DNA of 64,000 bases, taken from IMG/VR virus record IMGVR_UViG_3300036770_005357; one strand, 5' to 3'. Below, piece after piece: positions 6,174-53,718 of the stretch (the first letter of the stretch is position 1; the number at the start of each line of letters is the position of its first letter). The stretch is from a virus. Lineage: Duplodnaviria; Caudoviricetes. The translations under genes and the position numbers were made by a program. Below the pieces are notes generated by a model that made no database searches, was not told the DNA's origin, and worked only from the letters and a program-made list of their open reading frames with translations.

Positions 6174-6917
6174 TTAAATACAATTTACGAATTTATAATT
6201 GATGTTATTGTTGTATTTTTTTAAAGAATAATTTTTCCACCCATGTGCTTCGTAATATTTTTCATTATAATTAATACCAAATTCACCGATATGTTTTACT
6301 CTAGATTCTTTTGGAACAATGATTGATGTATCGGTTTTGTATTTCTCAACAATTTCCCAGTCGTAAGATCGTTTTTTGTCCCAATATTTTAAAACTTCGG
6401 TCCAAACTCTTTTTGTAACCAACCAACCACATGAATTGAAAAAATCTATACCGTCATTCATGAAATTTTTTATTTCTACAACTTCATGATCGTTTTCCTT
6501 ATAAATTAGGTTTTTAATAAAATTTTCTTTATTTAATAAGGAGAAAATATTGTTATCGTCATAATATTTAGAATTTATATAAAAATTTACTATATCATAT
6601 ACATCATTAGAAAATTCTACATCATCTTCACTCATGAGTACATGATCCAATTTTAGATTTTCAAAACAATAATTTAAACAAATAAAATGATTTAAATTGG
6701 CACCGAATCTATAAGGATTTATTTTCAAATCAAAGTTTTCGTAAATACTAAGCTTTTTTAAAAAAGATTGAACCTGCGACTCTGGTTCATAAAAAAATAT
6801 AAAATTTATCTTATCAAAATTGTTTTGCCGCAGACAACTTTCTACATATTGAGTATGATAATTAACTCGGTGAGGATTCCCCAACCACGAAGCAGCTACG
6901 ATATTTAATTTATTCAT
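6174..6917 (-). CDS. GT-A glycosyltransferase (GT2/GT13-like)
   Basis: LMSEDDVEFS and SRVKHIGEFG motifs; start moved to MNKLNIV at 6917. Confidence 0.65.
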   Translation of the reverse strand: MNKLNIVAASWLGNPHRVNYHTQYVESCLRQNNFDKINFIFFYEPESQVQSFLKKLSIYENFDLKINPYRFGANLNHFICLNYCFENLKLDHVLMSEDDVEFSNDVYDIVNFYINSKYYDDNNIFSLLNKENFIKNLIYKENDHEVVEIKNFMNDGIDFFNSCGWLVTKRVWTEVLKYWDKKRSYDWEIVEKYKTDTSIIVPKESRVKHIGEFGINYNEKYYEAHGWKNYSLKKYNNNINYKFVNCI

Positions 6918-6918
6918 A

Positions 6919-7632
6919 TTAAACTTTAATAATTGGTACATTATAATAATTAATAAAATGACCTTCAAATATTCTTAAATCGTCTGTGATACTCATTTTT
7001 ATATTTTTGTAATAAAAATCGTAAAATTTAGATCTACATAAATATATTTTATTATCACTTATCAAAAAAGAGTTCCAATTTTTATTTTCATTTAAAAAGA
7101 TAGAAATAGCAGCCGAGACATTTGGCCAAAATGCATTAAATGCATCATCAACACATATAACAGTTTGATCAATTGAATTTTCTTTACAAAGATTTAAATC
7201 GGACAAACATTCATCAAGTGAATGACCTCCGTCAATATGATAAAAAGAAATATTATTAAATTTATGATTAACTAAATTACGAGAATTGTCTTTAATTAAT
7301 TTAATTTTATCTAAACAACCATATTTTTTAATTAAATTCAACAACTCAGACTGTATGTTTGTATTACATTTTCCAGACTGAGATATATTTTCCTCTTGAT
7401 TTTCAAATAAATCAATTCCAATAACAGATTTAAAATCTAAATTTGAAAGATGTATCGTCACTCTGCCAAAATATACACCGATTTCCAATGCATTTTCTAT
7501 TAGATTGTTCGAAAATTGAATATTTGAAATATAATTAAATAGTAATAAATCTTTTCTTTTAAAATAGCCAGGAATAGTTAAATCATATTCATCCAATGTA
7601 CACTCATATTTTTTAATATTATTAAAATTCAT
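6919..7632 (-). CDS. Class I SAM-dependent methyltransferase (Methyltransf_24-like)
   Basis: LEIGVYFGR, GIDLFE, YHIDGGHSLDECLSDL, ICVDD. Confidence 0.85.
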   Translation of the reverse strand: MNFNNIKKYECTLDEYDLTIPGYFKRKDLLLFNYISNIQFSNNLIENALEIGVYFGRVTIHLSNLDFKSVIGIDLFENQEENISQSGKCNTNIQSELLNLIKKYGCLDKIKLIKDNSRNLVNHKFNNISFYHIDGGHSLDECLSDLNLCKENSIDQTVICVDDAFNAFWPNVSAAISIFLNENKNWNSFLISDNKIYLCRSKFYDFYYKNIKMSITDDLRIFEGHFINYYNVPIIKV

Positions 7633-48553: not shown

Positions 48554-49543
48554 TTAGAACGGAGGTTCGAACGGAGGTTGGTCACTCTTAAGCGGGTCAT
48601 TGAACAGAGTATCCTTAGTCTCGCTAGGAACATACTTCTGTACAAGCTGCTTCATGTAGGTTCGTTCACTGTCAACTCCACCGTCCTCAGTAAAATTAGG
48701 ATAGATGGTACTCTCAGCGATTTCAAGCAAATTAAATCCGTCAACAATAAGTTCAGCAATTTCAACCGTACTACGAGTAGGAATAAAATTAGTCAACTTA
48801 CTATCATCTTGCTTGACTTGCTTACGAGTGTGATCGGCAATCTCACAAACAGACTTGAGTGTATGTAGCTGACTATCATCAGCAATATTGAAACGAGTCT
48901 TAAGAAGATTAAACTCACTATCAACATCCAACGGATTCATCTCAATCTTAACCGGAAAACGGCTAAGTAGAGCACGATCCATAACACGGGTAGCCGTATA
49001 CTCGTTACCAACATTAGCAGTAGCAATAAAAGTAACACCATCGGCAACCTTCACAATTTCACTGTCTTCCTTTTCATCCAAACGAAGATATCGTTGAAGA
49101 TCGTCAAGCACAGTCATCAAAATGTTCACACCGTCGTGATGAGCACGGCTAATCTCGTCAAGAAGAATAATAGCACTTGGAGTACGAATAGCCTTGACAA
49201 AACTGGACTCCTTAAAAAGCGTACCAGTGCTCTTATCAAAATGAGTATTACCAATAAGTGCAGACCTAGCATCTTGCGTAGCACCCAGATTGAAATAAAA
49301 GAAAGAGGATTCCTTACCAAGTACCTTAGCGACGGTTTGTGCAGCAAGAGTCTTACCACATCCAGTAGGCCCTAGAAGCAAAATGTTCTTGCCACGAATA
49401 GCGGACCTAACCATGTACTTCCACTTCAAATCATCCATGATAAGAGAAGTAGGACGCAAATTAATACACTTATCAAGATAATCCTTGATATTGAAGTTTT
49501 TAGAAGTGAGAAGGTTAATGTTGTCGTTCTTGTTGTTTTTCAT
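48554..49543 (-). CDS. MoxR/CbbQ/CobS-like AAA+ ATPase
   Basis: GPTGCGKT, LLDEISR, FIATANVG, DRALLSRF. Confidence 0.92.
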   Translation of the reverse strand: MKNNKNDNINLLTSKNFNIKDYLDKCINLRPTSLIMDDLKWKYMVRSAIRGKNILLLGPTGCGKTLAAQTVAKVLGKESSFFYFNLGATQDARSALIGNTHFDKSTGTLFKESSFVKAIRTPSAIILLDEISRAHHDGVNILMTVLDDLQRYLRLDEKEDSEIVKVADGVTFIATANVGNEYTATRVMDRALLSRFPVKIEMNPLDVDSEFNLLKTRFNIADDSQLHTLKSVCEIADHTRKQVKQDDSKLTNFIPTRSTVEIAELIVDGFNLLEIAESTIYPNFTEDGGVDSERTYMKQLVQKYVPSETKDTLFNDPLKSDQPPFEPPF

Positions 49544-49565: not shown

Positions 49566-49593
49566 ATATTACCACAGTTTTAAAGAAAGTCAA
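49566..49593 (-). promoter_or_regulatory. Sigma70-like promoter
   Basis: TTGACT-16-TAATAT with extended TG. Confidence 0.65.
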
Positions 49594-49598
49594 CTGAC

Positions 49599-49631
49599 AA
49601 AATAAAAAAACCGCTGAATTTCTTCAGCGGT
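49599..49631 (-). terminator. Rho-independent terminator
   Basis: Minus strand ACCGCTGAA-GAAA-TTCAGCGGT followed by a long T tract. Confidence 0.9.
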
Positions 49632-49650
49632 CCATAATACTTTGTTTTTA

Positions 49651-50001
49651 TTAACGACGACCGCGATGGTATCTATGACCTCCACTTGCACCACCCACCC
49701 ATACGGTACCTGTTACTGGAGAACGATAACAGTCAGGACGATAATAATTTACTACGGGTATTGTACAATTAGGTTGAACAACTATAGGAGCCGGGGCAGT
49801 ATAAACCACTTGTTGTACAACAGGTTGAGCAATTACTACTGGTTGTGTATAAACTACAGGAACATAAACAACCGGAGGAGCATATACACGAGCACATCCA
49901 CCACCGATTCCGAAAGATATTCCCCAACTAAAGCCACCTGCTTGTACAGATGCAATAGAGAATATGCTTGTTAAAGCAGCTAGAATAATTGATTTTTTCA
50001 T
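49651..50001 (-). CDS. Secreted Pro/Val-rich small protein (PXPV-repeat-like)
   Basis: Signal peptide MKKSIILAALTSIFSIASVQA, then GGFSWGISFG, xPVV repeats and a basic tail. Confidence 0.75.
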   Translation of the reverse strand: MKKSIILAALTSIFSIASVQAGGFSWGISFGIGGGCARVYAPPVVYVPVVYTQPVVIAQPVVQQVVYTAPAPIVVQPNCTIPVVNYYRPDCYRSPVTGTVWVGGASGGHRYHRGRR

Positions 50002-50050
50002 ATAGTTATTAAACTAATTTAAGTATAACAGATTACAAAATATTATCAAA

Positions 50051-50419
50051 TTATTTATTTGCTAAAGTAGATTGTGTTTTTACACCCGACTCTAGTTTAT
50101 GTATTGAAAAATCTTTTTGATGATTATAATAAGATATCGCAATAAAAACGGCTACGCCTACTATGATTGTACAACTAGTAGTTATCCAAGTTCTAAAATG
50201 TTCTAGTTTAGAAACTCTATCATAAAGACCTTTAAATTTTTCGTGAATACCAGGTTTTGCTTCACTAACATTTTCAACATAACCAATAAAATCTTTTATT
50301 TTTATTACATTTTGATCGGTTTTATCTACTGTAAGTTTTATATGTTCAACATCTTTTTTGATACTGTTTAGTGTAACATAAAAATTTGTTAAATCCGAAG
50401 AAGACAATAAATCGCTCAT
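50051..50419 (-). CDS. Coiled-coil protein with single C-terminal TM (XhlA/holin-like architecture)
   Basis: LYDRVSKLEHFRTW followed by the hydrophobic helix ITTSCTIIVGVAVFIAISYY. Confidence 0.55.
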   Translation of the reverse strand: MSDLLSSSDLTNFYVTLNSIKKDVEHIKLTVDKTDQNVIKIKDFIGYVENVSEAKPGIHEKFKGLYDRVSKLEHFRTWITTSCTIIVGVAVFIAISYYNHQKDFSIHKLESGVKTQSTLANK

Positions 50420-50434
50420 TTTTTATCCTATAAC

Positions 50435-51064
50435 TTATTTTTTCTTAGTCTTACCGCCTTTTGTATATTTAACTACTAGCTTTTGTAAATTTTTTGGTAG
50501 TGTTGGTGGAGTATAATCTGGCTTCTTTGATTTATAATCTACTTGTCTTTCAAACTTACCAACTTCTCGCATTGGTTGTGTTGGATCATCAACCTCTTTA
50601 TTCATTGGTTCGGCTTTTATTTGCTTAGAAGGTTTATTGTCCTTTTCAGGATCTACCATACTTTCATCAGATAACTTATCACCTTTCTTACCACCTTCTT
50701 TATCCTTACTATTCTCAACATTTCTACTATATGTACTATCTACATAATTTAGTTCATTTTCATCTAAATAATCCTTAACGAACTTCTTTACATCTTCGTA
50801 CTTTACATATAGTTTCTTTACTCTATCGGTACCGTCTTTAAATGCTTGTATATCGTAAATATTATGAGTTATCGGTCTAATGCTGATATGATGTGGCTCA
50901 CACTCACATACATTATAGTTACCCTTATCATCTAATACTACCGGCTTCTTTATCTCCTTCGCTAACTCCTCCATCATATCAGCAAAAGATTCCGATGCGT
51001 TCGTGTATTTTTGTTCAAGCGTTTCTTTAACTAGCTTATTTACGGTTTTTTTGGAATAGCTCAT
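50435..51064 (-). CDS. Hypothetical protein with charged low-complexity C-terminus
   Basis: 209 aa ORF preceded by TATTTATA. Confidence 0.65.
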   Translation of the reverse strand: MSYSKKTVNKLVKETLEQKYTNASESFADMMEELAKEIKKPVVLDDKGNYNVCECEPHHISIRPITHNIYDIQAFKDGTDRVKKLYVKYEDVKKFVKDYLDENELNYVDSTYSRNVENSKDKEGGKKGDKLSDESMVDPEKDNKPSKQIKAEPMNKEVDDPTQPMREVGKFERQVDYKSKKPDYTPPTLPKNLQKLVVKYTKGGKTKKK

Positions 51065-51102
51065 ATCTCTATATATAAATAGTATCTGTTATATAATTAT
51101 TA

Positions 51103-51660
51103 TTATTTTTTAATTTCTTCTAATACATGTATATGTCCAATATAACCGTAATTTTCGTTTCTTATAGCAGTTACCTTTACATTATAAATATTACCTTCTC
51201 TATCTACTACTCTATGTTCACTGATACTACTTCTTTTATCTCTTATAGCTTTATCCCATTCTTTTTCAACATGTTCTAAATCTTCACCATGTACTCCATT
51301 TTTCCATCCATTACCCAAGAAATATTCAACATCGTGTTTCAATAATTGACAATATTTCTCATTTACCCATGTACAACTACCACTCGTATTACATTCAAAT
51401 ATAGGTTCGGGTCTATTATCCAATATCCACTTTTGTCTACAACATATGGTATTTATTGCATCTGAATCTTTGTTCACCTGAGTTTGTATAGCGGTAACTC
51501 TATCTTTTAAAGACTTACCACCATTAGGTTTAACTTCTTCAAGAATATCTTTAATATTCTTATTTAGATTATTAACCCACTTAAATACTACAAATAAAAA
51601 TCCACCAACAGTTACCAATGCTATTATAGTTTGAAGAATGGAAAAAATAAGGTTCATCAT
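51103..51660 (-). CDS. Membrane-anchored PAS/PAC domain protein
   Basis: N-terminal TM, PNGGKSLKD motif, then PIFECNTSGSCTWVNEKYCQLL..LGNGWKNGVHGED..EHRVVDREG (PAS_3-like). Confidence 0.85.
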   Translation of the reverse strand: MMNLIFSILQTIIALVTVGGFLFVVFKWVNNLNKNIKDILEEVKPNGGKSLKDRVTAIQTQVNKDSDAINTICCRQKWILDNRPEPIFECNTSGSCTWVNEKYCQLLKHDVEYFLGNGWKNGVHGEDLEHVEKEWDKAIRDKRSSISEHRVVDREGNIYNVKVTAIRNENYGYIGHIHVLEEIKK

Positions 51661-51693
51661 ATTATAAAAATAATTGTTTATATAAATATAAAT

Positions 51694-51727
51694 AAAAAAG
51701 CACTTAACTTAATAAGTGCTCTTTTTT
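51694..51727. terminator. Probable bidirectional rho-independent terminator
   Basis: AAAAAAGCACTTA-ACTTAA-TAAGTGCTCTTTTTT. Confidence 0.75.
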
Positions 51728-51741
51728 AAATGTTTTTTATA

Positions 51742-53718
51742 TTATCTAACTGGACATACACCACTTTCACATTCAATGCCTTGTAGAAGTTCTCCACTTG
51801 TATTGATAGTAAGGTTACTGAGTGGTTTAACCTTCTCTTTAGCCTTCAAATAAGCATCTTTATCTATTTCTTGATAAGGAGCTTGCTTAAAGCCGTGTTT
51901 CTGTCTTAACAAGAAACTTACACTCTTGACATTATTCTTATAATTATCTTTCAACCAACCCTTAAGCTCATTCAACTCAGATGGTTCATAATAAGCCGTA
52001 ACACTTACAGCATTATCACTCCATACCTTTTGAAGTTCCTTAACCATGTTCAATTGTTTAATAACACCCATATCATCCGCTAAGATTGCACCTTCCGGAG
52101 TTTCACATGGAAAATAAACAACAACTGTATCATGATTTTCCGTACCATCAAAATTCAACAAGAATTCGGTGTGGTATCCCAAATCTTTACAAATTTGTAC
52201 GAGCTTGTCACTACTGCTCATACGAACTGTTCGCATATAATACTTACTGTAAGCAGGATGTACACCTGGAGTAGCTCCTCCAAGCAAACTCAATGTACCA
52301 CTTGGCTTAACTGTGGTCAACTTAATGCTTTCCGGCCATCCTCGTTCCTTACTCCAGCTCTTATCAAACTTACGAAGTTCAACATAACACTTATCTAACC
52401 AAGGAACTTTATCAAGTGATTGACAAATACCAGTAACACCCAACCCGAGTCTCATGTTCTTATGAACAATCTTATTGGTTTCTTCGTGAATAAATGGAAG
52501 TGCTGCAATAGCCTTTTGAGTCTTATAAAGCAACTTAGCACAATCATTTAATTCGTCTTGTGACTCAATATTATTTAAATAAAGTTCACAAAGATTACAA
52601 CATTCATAATCACTCAAACTAATTTCACCACACGGATTTGTTCCAATAACATTATCAACATCTGTTGGATACAACTTACTATCCTTAAGAGGACCATCCT
52701 TCAATCGTCCATACTTTTGACTGAGTGGTAAATTGAAGAATCCATATGGTTCACCATTAGCAAAACCGGTTTCTTTATTAATCTCATAACCATTAGTCCA
52801 AAACTCATCAATCAAATGACTATAATCGTCAACATAAAGAGTATTGTTGCTCATGGCTCTCCAGTTAGGTACATTACCAGCACTCCAATTCTTAGCTCTT
52901 ATATAAAGAATATCATCAGGATCACCCAAAGCAATTTCAGCACTTCTACGAACATTACCAGCAACAACAATGCTACCAATAATATTACAAATATCAAGTA
53001 CATCAATACTTCTAAGCTTCTTAGCTTCTCTGCTTTGGAAGATTTTTGTAATCTTCTCAATACCATCAACTAAGATAGATGGACCACTTGCTTTACCACC
53101 AAATCCACTAATCTTTTCACCGGCACCACGAACAAGAATTGTGCTATATGTAAAACTTTTACCGGTAACATAAAAAGCATCAAGTACATTAGCCAACAAC
53201 TTGACCCATCCTTCTCTTGTATCAGGTACAATAAAATCAGCATCCTTGGTTGGTTGATGTGTAACATTTACATCTTTCTTGATTCTAGGAAGTTCGTGTA
53301 CATCTTCACGACGAACGCTGTATCCAACACCTCCACCCAACATCAAATTCTCAAATAAAAACAAAAATGCTTTGGGTTCTCTAATACTTGTAAACCAACA
53401 ATTTAGAAGACTGTTTGCACCGAATCTATCAACTGTGCTAGTGCCTAATTGCCAAAGCATTCTTCCGGCAAAATTACACTTCAAGTTAAAGACATAATCA
53501 AAAAGTCTTTCAGCTTCTTCTTTAGTATATTGGGCACCAATCTTTTGCGCACCGTTTATACACCTTTCAATGGTTTCATGCCATTCTTCGGTATTACCAT
53601 CATCTTTCAATCTAGCATATGTTCTTTTATATACTATATAGCCCAATCCATTAAAACCCCAATTGGGTTGTTTCTTTGCATACTTCTTGACAAAATCTTT
53701 ACTTAAAATATCACTCAT
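51742..53718 (-). CDS. nrdJ: Class II (adenosylcobalamin-dependent) ribonucleotide reductase, monomeric type
   Basis: AGRMLWQLG, LLNCWF, GNVRRSA, TNPCGEI, CNL, RLGLGVTG, TTVKPSGT, C-terminal CESGVCP. Confidence 0.93.
   Translation of the reverse strand: MSDILSKDFVKKYAKKQPNWGFNGLGYIVYKRTYARLKDDGNTEEWHETIERCINGAQKIGAQYTKEEAERLFDYVFNLKCNFAGRMLWQLGTSTVDRFGANSLLNCWFTSIREPKAFLFLFENLMLGGGVGYSVRREDVHELPRIKKDVNVTHQPTKDADFIVPDTREGWVKLLANVLDAFYVTGKSFTYSTILVRGAGEKISGFGGKASGPSILVDGIEKITKIFQSREAKKLRSIDVLDICNIIGSIVVAGNVRRSAEIALGDPDDILYIRAKNWSAGNVPNWRAMSNNTLYVDDYSHLIDEFWTNGYEINKETGFANGEPYGFFNLPLSQKYGRLKDGPLKDSKLYPTDVDNVIGTNPCGEISLSDYECCNLCELYLNNIESQDELNDCAKLLYKTQKAIAALPFIHEETNKIVHKNMRLGLGVTGICQSLDKVPWLDKCYVELRKFDKSWSKERGWPESIKLTTVKPSGTLSLLGGATPGVHPAYSKYYMRTVRMSSSDKLVQICKDLGYHTEFLLNFDGTENHDTVVVYFPCETPEGAILADDMGVIKQLNMVKELQKVWSDNAVSVTAYYEPSELNELKGWLKDNYKNNVKSVSFLLRQKHGFKQAPYQEIDKDAYLKAKEKVKPLSNLTINTSGELLQGIECESGVCPVR

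Follow-up and report, generated by a model that had tools for sequence, protein, structure and literature searches.

In textbook accounts of phage T4, the holin T with the antiholins RI and RIII offers a late single-transmembrane (TM) protein with a large globular domain, a lysis timing that responds to a signal, and lysis genes scattered in a large genome. To our knowledge, the known inputs to phage lysis timing are few, namely collapse of the proton-motive force and, in T4, lysis inhibition by superinfection. The subject of the present analysis is a gene for a membrane-anchored PAS protein of 185 amino acids (aa), located at 51103..51660 on the minus strand of a 64,000-nt stretch of DNA (the window, whose numbering is used below) from the virus record IMGVR_UViG_3300036770_005357. 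The whole record is a 173-kb linear virus contig of ~24-39% GC, estimated to be 73% complete, and its nearest cultured relatives in a helicase comparison are a Microcystis phage and Flavobacterium phages, at 37-45% identity. The PAS protein is likened to the T4 system in the respects just named. At the same time, it has no sequence or fold relation to T, the globular domain of T is periplasmic whereas the C-terminus is predicted to lie inside here, and hole formation by the PAS protein is hypothetical.

Two further groups of described proteins come close. The small phage proteins of phrog_9869 share with the PAS protein an N-terminal TM helix, an E..PNGG(S/K)S(I/L)KD turn and a following helix; their stand-alone members are 58-130 aa long, have a short charged coil at the end and usually lie beside an endolysin-type peptidase, whereas the PAS protein has an added PAS domain and is located among replication genes. 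The short PAS/LOV proteins W619_1-LOV (5LUV) and PpSB2-LOV (7A6P) and the structural-genomics PAS domains 3LYX and 3BWL, which are among the top fold matches of the phage domain, likewise have helices flanking a PAS core and lack an output domain. These proteins are soluble and their LOV members have a flavin-binding Cys, whereas the phage PAS family combines its domain with a membrane module and shows no invariant Cys or His.

We tentatively prefer to read the gene as a mobile late cassette in which a holin/antiholin-type membrane module is fused to a cytoplasmic PAS sensor. An earlier note on this DNA had placed the gene at the head of a terminator-bounded four-gene unit; the object of interest is the single PAS cassette together with its uncharacterised N-terminal family, and not the four-gene group.

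The description of the protein in that note, as a membrane-anchored PAS sensor without an output domain, was borne out by the domain and structure searches. PAS_4 (PF08448) matched residues 76-183 with an E-value of 1.3e-8 (35.4 bits against the Pfam cut-off of 23.1), and PAS_3 (PF08447) matched with 1.1e-7 (32.5 bits, cut-off 25.6). The AlphaFold2 (AF2) model, built on 21 homologues with a mean predicted local distance difference test score (pLDDT) of 84, begins with a long helix (residues 2-43) in which the hydrophobic stretch occupies ~5-27. The PNGGKSL segment appears as a loop of low confidence (44-50), the next helix covers 51-81, and a canonical PAS fold takes up 87-183, where the five-stranded antiparallel sheet and flanking helices of the PAS class are present and the pLDDT reaches 90-95 over residues 81-180. 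Foldseek assigned a probability of 1.0 to many PAS structures, with TM-scores (target) of up to 0.83 to solved PAS domains; among the best matches, heme-binding, flavin adenine dinucleotide (FAD)-binding, LOV and cofactor-free domains scored about equally. In the family alignment no His or Cys of the PAS domain is invariant, and Cys96 is Phe in distant members. The domain scan of the 185-aa protein revealed nothing besides PAS, the chain stops at the PAS domain, and no histidine kinase, GGDEF or helix-turn-helix output domain of PAS signal transducers is present. Homologues range from 101 to 324 aa with PAS as the single domain type, and the sole long relatives carry two PAS domains per chain; no longer fused homologue was found at an E-value of 1e-5 or better, which is weak evidence. 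When the protein and its region were compared by tblastn and megablast with 50,697 phage records, no match was obtained, and nothing relevant was found in the literature on PAS with holin, on the motif string or on PAS in jumbo phages.

The part of the protein that precedes the PAS domain is conserved in its own right. Residues 35-68 match phrog_9869 with an E-value of 9.7e-8, and this hidden Markov model (HMM) match is accompanied by the N-terminal TM helix (~5-27) and the PNxGxSxKD signature of that family, here PNGGKSLKD at residues 45-53, in the conserved E42..PNGGKSLKD53 loop that separates two long helices. The residues I39, E42, N46, G48, S50, K52 and D53 are invariant in full-length homologues down to 31% identity, and in the family alignment the conservation of the motif equals that of the PAS core. 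With a profile built from the first ~75-100 residues, a search of 1.84 billion cluster representatives gave 1103 matching representative clusters at an E-value of 1e-3 or better. Among the top 148 matches, 94 proteins have the motif within a length of 141-260 aa, and the ~130 residues that follow it correspond in size to a PAS domain; another 31, of 140 aa or less, have the motif followed by only ~33 residues. Two giant matches (3336 and 2491 aa) lack the motif; they are Gram-positive surface proteins of the YSIRK/LPXTG kind and were set aside as composition artefacts. In 114 of the top matches the content of Lys and Arg is higher on the C-terminal side of the TM helix, and in none is it higher on the N-terminal side, so by the positive-inside rule the motif and the PAS domain are predicted to be cytoplasmic.

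The stand-alone members match phrog_9869 with E-values of 1e-5 to 1e-11 and, weakly and over the motif itself, phrog_15431, which is annotated as holin; the holin PHROG match of the PAS protein has an E-value of 0.067. No Pfam family was matched by the stand-alone members, and the N-terminal profile found only designed coiled coils among the PDB sequences. The phage-record search with stand-alone members returned two unannotated records at most, or none, and only 24 loci with the module, mostly in freshwater metagenome-assembled genomes, were present in 185,579 species genomes, from which we conclude that the family is essentially phage-borne. The PNGGKSLKD segment had earlier been likened to DUF2746-like small membrane proteins found near phage lysis genes. 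This resemblance held in so far as the segment does belong to a family of small phage membrane proteins linked to endolysins; the family is not DUF2746 (PF10874), which was rejected because no HMM match appeared in any set searched: none at E up to 10 for the N-terminal parts, none at E up to 1 for the stand-alone members, and none in the whole 173-kb record or in four actinobacterial genomes carrying motif proteins. Measured against the usual features of a holin, the PAS protein has one TM helix and a late-type promoter motif, and its 185 aa with a folded C-terminal domain are atypical.

A role in lysis is suggested by the genomic setting of the stand-alone module. The IMG/VR scan gave at least 550 loci matching the module, 80 of which were fetched, and 71 of these were non-redundant. 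For three stand-alone representatives looked up singly, the contigs were shorter than 1 kb and gave no usable context. A VldE-like or NlpC/P60-like peptidase is present in 52 of the 71 loci; it lies no more than two genes from the module in 48 of the 71 (48 of the 52 that bear a peptidase) and adjoins it in 27, against an expectation of 34%, which is the share of genes in these loci lying within two genes of a module gene. The peptidase stands upstream of the module in one architecture and downstream in another, and the peptidase often has a further small TM protein beside it. The first kind of peptidase, phrog_32486, is 141-215 aa long (e.g., L153:5162-5614 and L166:4397-4831, within loci L087-L166). 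The protein Atlas groups it with PF26571 VldE clusters, some of which are named "putative endolysin" and pair VldE with a CW_7 wall-binding domain, and an invariant Hx6D...HxH pattern was read by eye; its peptidase nature rests on this Atlas lead and the eye-read pattern, and the VldE-like profile had no match among PDB sequences. Annotated as unknown, phrog_32486 looks like an under-annotated endolysin class of freshwater phages. The second kind is NlpC/P60-like, with a cell-wall hydrolase match at an E-value of 0.013.

Because the module also occurs as a complete protein beside endolysins, it most probably has an inner-membrane activity of its own. Its small size, its one TM helix, the charged tail on the cytoplasmic side, the accompanying small TM protein and a probably late expression fit the operational description of a holin or antiholin. 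A different setting was seen in five loci, where the stand-alone module lies directly 5' of the large-terminase and portal genes and is preceded by a 155-163-aa protein without family match that resembles a small terminase by eye only, and in six loci of one small-phage group, where a PAS fusion lies directly 5' of the portal gene. Both arrangements would suit a membrane-associated helper of assembly or packaging. We regard such a role as improbable, since these loci are a minority, lysis and moron genes often stand at the borders of genome modules, no virion or assembly family was matched, and the large-phage lineage has the gene among replication genes.

PAS fusions in other phages, some of them unrelated, were found in several further contexts. 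Two of them (L174 and L179) end a tail-fibre operon. In L175 the genes after the fusion encode a TM protein of 82 aa, a protein of 174 aa and a TM protein of 247 aa that weakly matches an Rz-like spanin (E 7e-4), and in L182/L183 they encode a TM protein of 72 aa, a protein of 307 aa, a lipoprotein and a further TM protein; no PDB match was obtained for the neighbours of the fusion in L175 and L182. In L180/L181 the fusion precedes a Peptidase_C92-like protein and a secreted trypsin-like protein. The gene next to full-length homologues at 31-37% identity encodes a protein of 317-319 aa that has a lipoprotein signal at its N-terminus (…GC FST) and, after a long middle section, two to three TM helices at its C-terminal end (L072:4935-5888, L074:4968-5927, L078:2762-3721 and L226:5011-5970), for which the one match was phrog_10579 (E 6e-4), and an outer-membrane beta-barrel-like protein lies near PAS in some of these loci. 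Together these contexts suggest envelope functions, without proof. In one phage group the gene directly upstream of the PAS homologue encodes a protein of 583-594 aa in which ankyrin repeats (E 1e-35) are combined with a C-terminal match to the catalytic domain of adenylate/guanylate cyclases (E 1.4e-5), possibly a nucleotide-signalling enzyme (L075:4161-5912 and L078:4189-5973).

In the lineage of the record itself, the PAS gene behaves as an independent cassette. Four open reading frames (ORFs) on the minus strand, namely PAS, g2, g3 and g4, are flanked by the genes of a class II ribonucleotide reductase (RNR, 51742-53718) and of a MoxR/CobS-like AAA+ protein (48554-49543). The claim that the four genes are bracketed by two strong terminators was confirmed by ORF coordinates, fold energies and shuffling. 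The hairpin and T-run detected by pattern scan after the RNR gene (51694..51725, minus strand) folds with -15.0 kcal/mol (z -5.35) and is bidirectional in form, with an A-run before and a T-run after the stem; that closing the group (49608..49633, minus strand, also from the pattern scan) folds with -16.2 kcal/mol (z -5.13). In both cases none of 200 shuffled sequences was as stable. The pattern scan found no internal terminator between the four genes, so read-through from the first promoter is likely.

Co-transcription of this kind, together with the coil and TM helix of g3 and the signal peptide of g4, is what would be expected if the four genes formed one dedicated operon in which the PAS protein controls a holin- or XhlA-like g3 and a secreted g4. 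The gene content of relatives largely refutes this reading, which we consider highly improbable. About 55 IMG/VR loci of the lineage show the order DnaB-RNR-PAS-g2-(small gene)-AAA-vWA-p120-DruA. The closest relative found, L225, with flanking genes ~93% identical, has RNR-g2-g3-g4-AAA and no PAS at this position. In blastn and tblastn comparisons with the window its alignment breaks exactly at 51681 and resumes at 51084, so that a segment of 598 nt (51084..51681, minus strand), comprising the PAS ORF and its spacer, is replaced by 9 nt. At the L225 junction there are two TATTTAT motifs 9-10 nt apart, and CTATTTATA stands directly after the first of them. A scan centred on g2 yielded 56 distinct loci, with PAS between RNR and g2 in 26 and absent from that place in 30, which show either RNR-g2-AAA-vWA or an unrelated 257-266-aa gene in that place. 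Two contigs from related giant phages that lack PAS at the RNR-g2 position carry it ~82 kb (303-kb contig) and ~133 kb (172-kb contig) from g2. Moreover, g3 is known from 7 homologue clusters only and has neither an XhlA nor a confident holin match, other relatives have unrelated coil and TM proteins or nothing at its position, and g4 has its own sigma-70-like promoter and lacks a lipobox. The stable backbone is RNR-g2-AAA-vWA, into which PAS, g3 and g4 have been inserted separately, at two variable positions; PAS (29% GC) and g3 (27%) are poorer in GC than the backbone genes (33-40%). The earlier proposal of a single four-gene functional module was therefore abandoned.

The 257-266-aa protein with a KNHYTHKWT motif that occupies the RNR-g2 position in a sister lineage (L057, L060, L062, L068 and L070, at ~6570-7385; L294-L306) occurs with or without PAS. 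In relatives (L007:2016-3128 and L070:1291-4803), an intein/HINT signal was observed in the DnaB helicase gene, and in L070 the gene for a class I RNR large subunit is interrupted by an inserted ORF; the DnaB and RNR genes of the window are uninterrupted.

The cassette carries its own upstream signals. The commonest enriched 8-mer within 100 nt 5' of the ORFs of the 173-kb record is ATATTTAT, present in 31 of 229 upstream regions with a 7-fold excess; the enrichment of CTATTTAT is higher (8.7), on 8 upstream regions only. The motif usually stands 12-36 nt 5' of the start codon and is often doubled as ATATTTATATTTATA. The doubled motif that had been noticed before the PAS gene is real: TATTTATA occupies 51681..51694 on the sense (minus) strand, 29-35 nt 5' of the PAS start codon. 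Ten motif-bearing genes were scanned, of which four encode tail-fibre, virion-structural or tape-measure proteins, one a homing endonuclease, one a nucleotidase fusion, and four have no family. Since the motif is common to PAS and tail genes, expression of PAS is probably late. The RNR, DnaB, AAA+ and vWA genes are without ATATTTAT; the AAA+ gene has a sigma-70-like site instead (49566-49593; TTGACT, 16 nt, TAATAT with TG), lying between the closing terminator and the AAA+/vWA genes, which would accordingly be transcribed by another promoter class than PAS and g2. The site that may serve as the promoter of g2 itself is the CTATTTATA motif at 51074..51082 (minus strand), 18 nt 5' of the g2 start. 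Of 37 distinct regions upstream of PAS genes, relocated copies included, 28 contain TATTTAT; a hairpin accompanies it in most of them and is missing in a few, such as L057 and L061. The recurrent layout 5' of most PAS genes is a hairpin, a T-run, ATATTTATA, and then 13-30 nt to the ATG. The stem sequences of the hairpins at the same place differ among relatives, which argues for a selected terminator-promoter unit. In one aquatic metatranscriptome run, 5% of the sampled words were present and six short contigs were obtained, among them an identical 224-nt piece on g2 and one piece over the PAS start, which cannot show transcription, its ends or its level.

The neighbours of PAS in its own lineage are RNR, deoxycytidine monophosphate (dCMP) deaminase and AAA+/vWA genes. 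On the 172-kb contig and in L004 of a separate 260-kb contig, the dCMP deaminase gene directly follows PAS (L004:7001-8169 and L333:945-2100; jumbo-phage relatives in which PAS is not beside RNR). PAS thus adjoins a nucleotide-metabolism gene in both arrangements, which may be a coincidence or a link. The main rival to a lysis module is a membrane-tethered PAS protein that acts on the host, by pairing for example with PAS domains of host sensor kinases or chemoreceptors, or by sensing the state of the host so as to control superinfection or metabolism, with the N-terminal module as a conserved anchor or docking site. The accessory, moron-like character of the gene, its two nucleotide-metabolism settings (RNR-PAS and PAS-dCMP deaminase) and the absence of a lysis gene close to PAS all speak for a host-directed sensor, and PAS domains commonly heterodimerise. 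Even so, we think such a sensor rather unlikely: the module also exists as a complete small protein next to endolysins and so should have its own activity, its motif is as conserved as the PAS core, beyond the needs of an anchor, and a promoter common with tail genes would be late for host takeover.

According to the preferred reading, the PAS gene is a self-contained accessory cassette of one ORF, headed by a terminator and a late-type ATATTTATA promoter, which moves independently within a lineage of large freshwater phages. Its product would cross the inner membrane once, leaving a short N-terminal end outside and the remainder in the cytoplasm. The first ~75 residues, comprising the TM helix, the E-x2-PNxGxSxKD turn and the second helix, form a conserved phage module, the same that makes up a whole 58-130-aa protein beside the endolysin in hundreds of smaller phages. 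This membrane module would be the effector, of holin/antiholin type, setting the time of membrane breach, and the PAS_3/PAS_4-type domain would make it respond to a cytoplasmic cue (a ligand, redox or energy state) that may bias either oligomerisation of the module or its action on a holin. The genes g2, g3 and g4 would be co-transcribed bystanders. A part in lysis timing is thus suggested for the PAS protein by analogy with the relatives of its N-terminal module. The more general proposition, that the TM and PNxGxSxKD module forms a new holin/antiholin class whose PAS-fused forms gate the lysis clock by a cytoplasmic sensor on the same chain, seems to us doubtful.

Several observations weigh against this interpretation. 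No endolysin, holin or spanin lies near PAS in its own lineage, so the linkage to lysis genes sought among homologues was found for the stand-alone relatives (48 of 71 loci) and not for the PAS gene itself. The 71 loci, all selected for their resemblance to a single query, are not independent of one another. The packaging/head region holds the module in two phage groups, in the orders putative small terminase-module-large terminase and large terminase-...-PAS fusion-portal. The holin PHROG matches of the module are weak (E 3e-4 to 0.07), and phrog_9869 is annotated as of unknown function. The PAS domain, in which neither His nor Cys is invariant, shows no clear cofactor class, and assigning the ATATTTATA promoter to the late class draws on gene content only. 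The earlier note saw no endolysin in the window, and none lies near the unit; the sole Phage_lysozyme domain of the 173-kb record (G000:C1:88391-88693) is part of a 721-aa ORF located ~3.3 kb before the window start and ~55 kb from PAS, which by its size is more likely a baseplate-hub or virion lysozyme than an endolysin.

The three remaining genes of the group are not partners of PAS. The product of g2 (50435..51064, minus strand) is a charged soluble protein of 209 aa with an N-terminal helix, a small beta domain and a disordered basic tail (AF2 pLDDT 65); it fell into no family of Pfam or PHROG, its model had no significant match among BFVD and PDB folds, and the Atlas search gave no match. 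Complex prediction for the cytoplasmic part of the PAS protein with the N-terminal domain of g2 gave a score of 0.00, which is no verdict either way.

The 122-aa product of g3 (50051..50419, minus strand) has an N-terminal coil and one TM helix at ~78-97. In this it resembles XhlA of the Bacillus PBSX lysis cassette, in which an N-terminal coil is likewise followed by one TM helix; it differs from XhlA in having no HMM match and in being a rare insert. The XhlA/holin-like architecture ascribed to g3 therefore stands as far as the coil and the TM helix are concerned, and fails in that XhlA (PF10779) gave no match for g3 at E 0.1 or better, and none at E up to 10 in the whole record, and no holin match was confident (phrog_689, E 0.012 only). 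The best PHROG matches of g3, phrog_5553 (E 0.00059) and phrog_4462 (E 0.00089), are both annotated as unknown, and the Atlas search returned unnamed viral clusters and DUF7201 at a score of 0.90. A protein with a coil and a TM helix stands at the g3 position in only a few relatives' loci, and no homology was detectable between g3 and the coil and TM proteins at this position in L010.

The product of g4 (49651..50001, minus strand; 116 aa) has a signal peptide (...SIASVQA/GG) without a lipobox, Pro/Val-rich repeats and a basic His/Arg tail, and is 78% identical in L225. The lipobox Cys of a spanin pair is lacking in g3/g4: g4 has no Cys at the cleavage site, and the signal peptides of its relatives end in ...QTFA/GD. 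The g4 promoter (50022..50049, minus strand; TTGATA, 16 nt, TG-TATACT), a consensus match only, is the best-scoring promoter-like site of the scan, with 10 of 12 matches and an extended -10. In relatives the small gene after g2 is usually of the g4 type, 105-126 aa long, with a signal peptide, (QPxPVVY)n repeats of varying number and a His-rich tail; the family has a conserved GDREWATVGKVLTGV segment (L001, L007, L012, L027, L030 and others), and the CobS/CobT-like AAA+/vWA pair follows its genes directly. The g4-type proteins might conceivably bind metal in the periplasm.

The locus is a clean example of a promoter-plus-gene cassette moving among positions in large phage genomes, and it warns that terminator-bounded gene groups in such genomes are not to be read as functional operons. 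The N-terminal module represents a large family, with its 1103 representative clusters, that has no Pfam model and no assigned function. If the proposed reading is true, a module placed beside endolysins and repeatedly fused to PAS would be a direct route for coupling lysis to host physiology, and many phages, giant freshwater ones included, would time lysis by a metabolite, redox or energy signal of the host.

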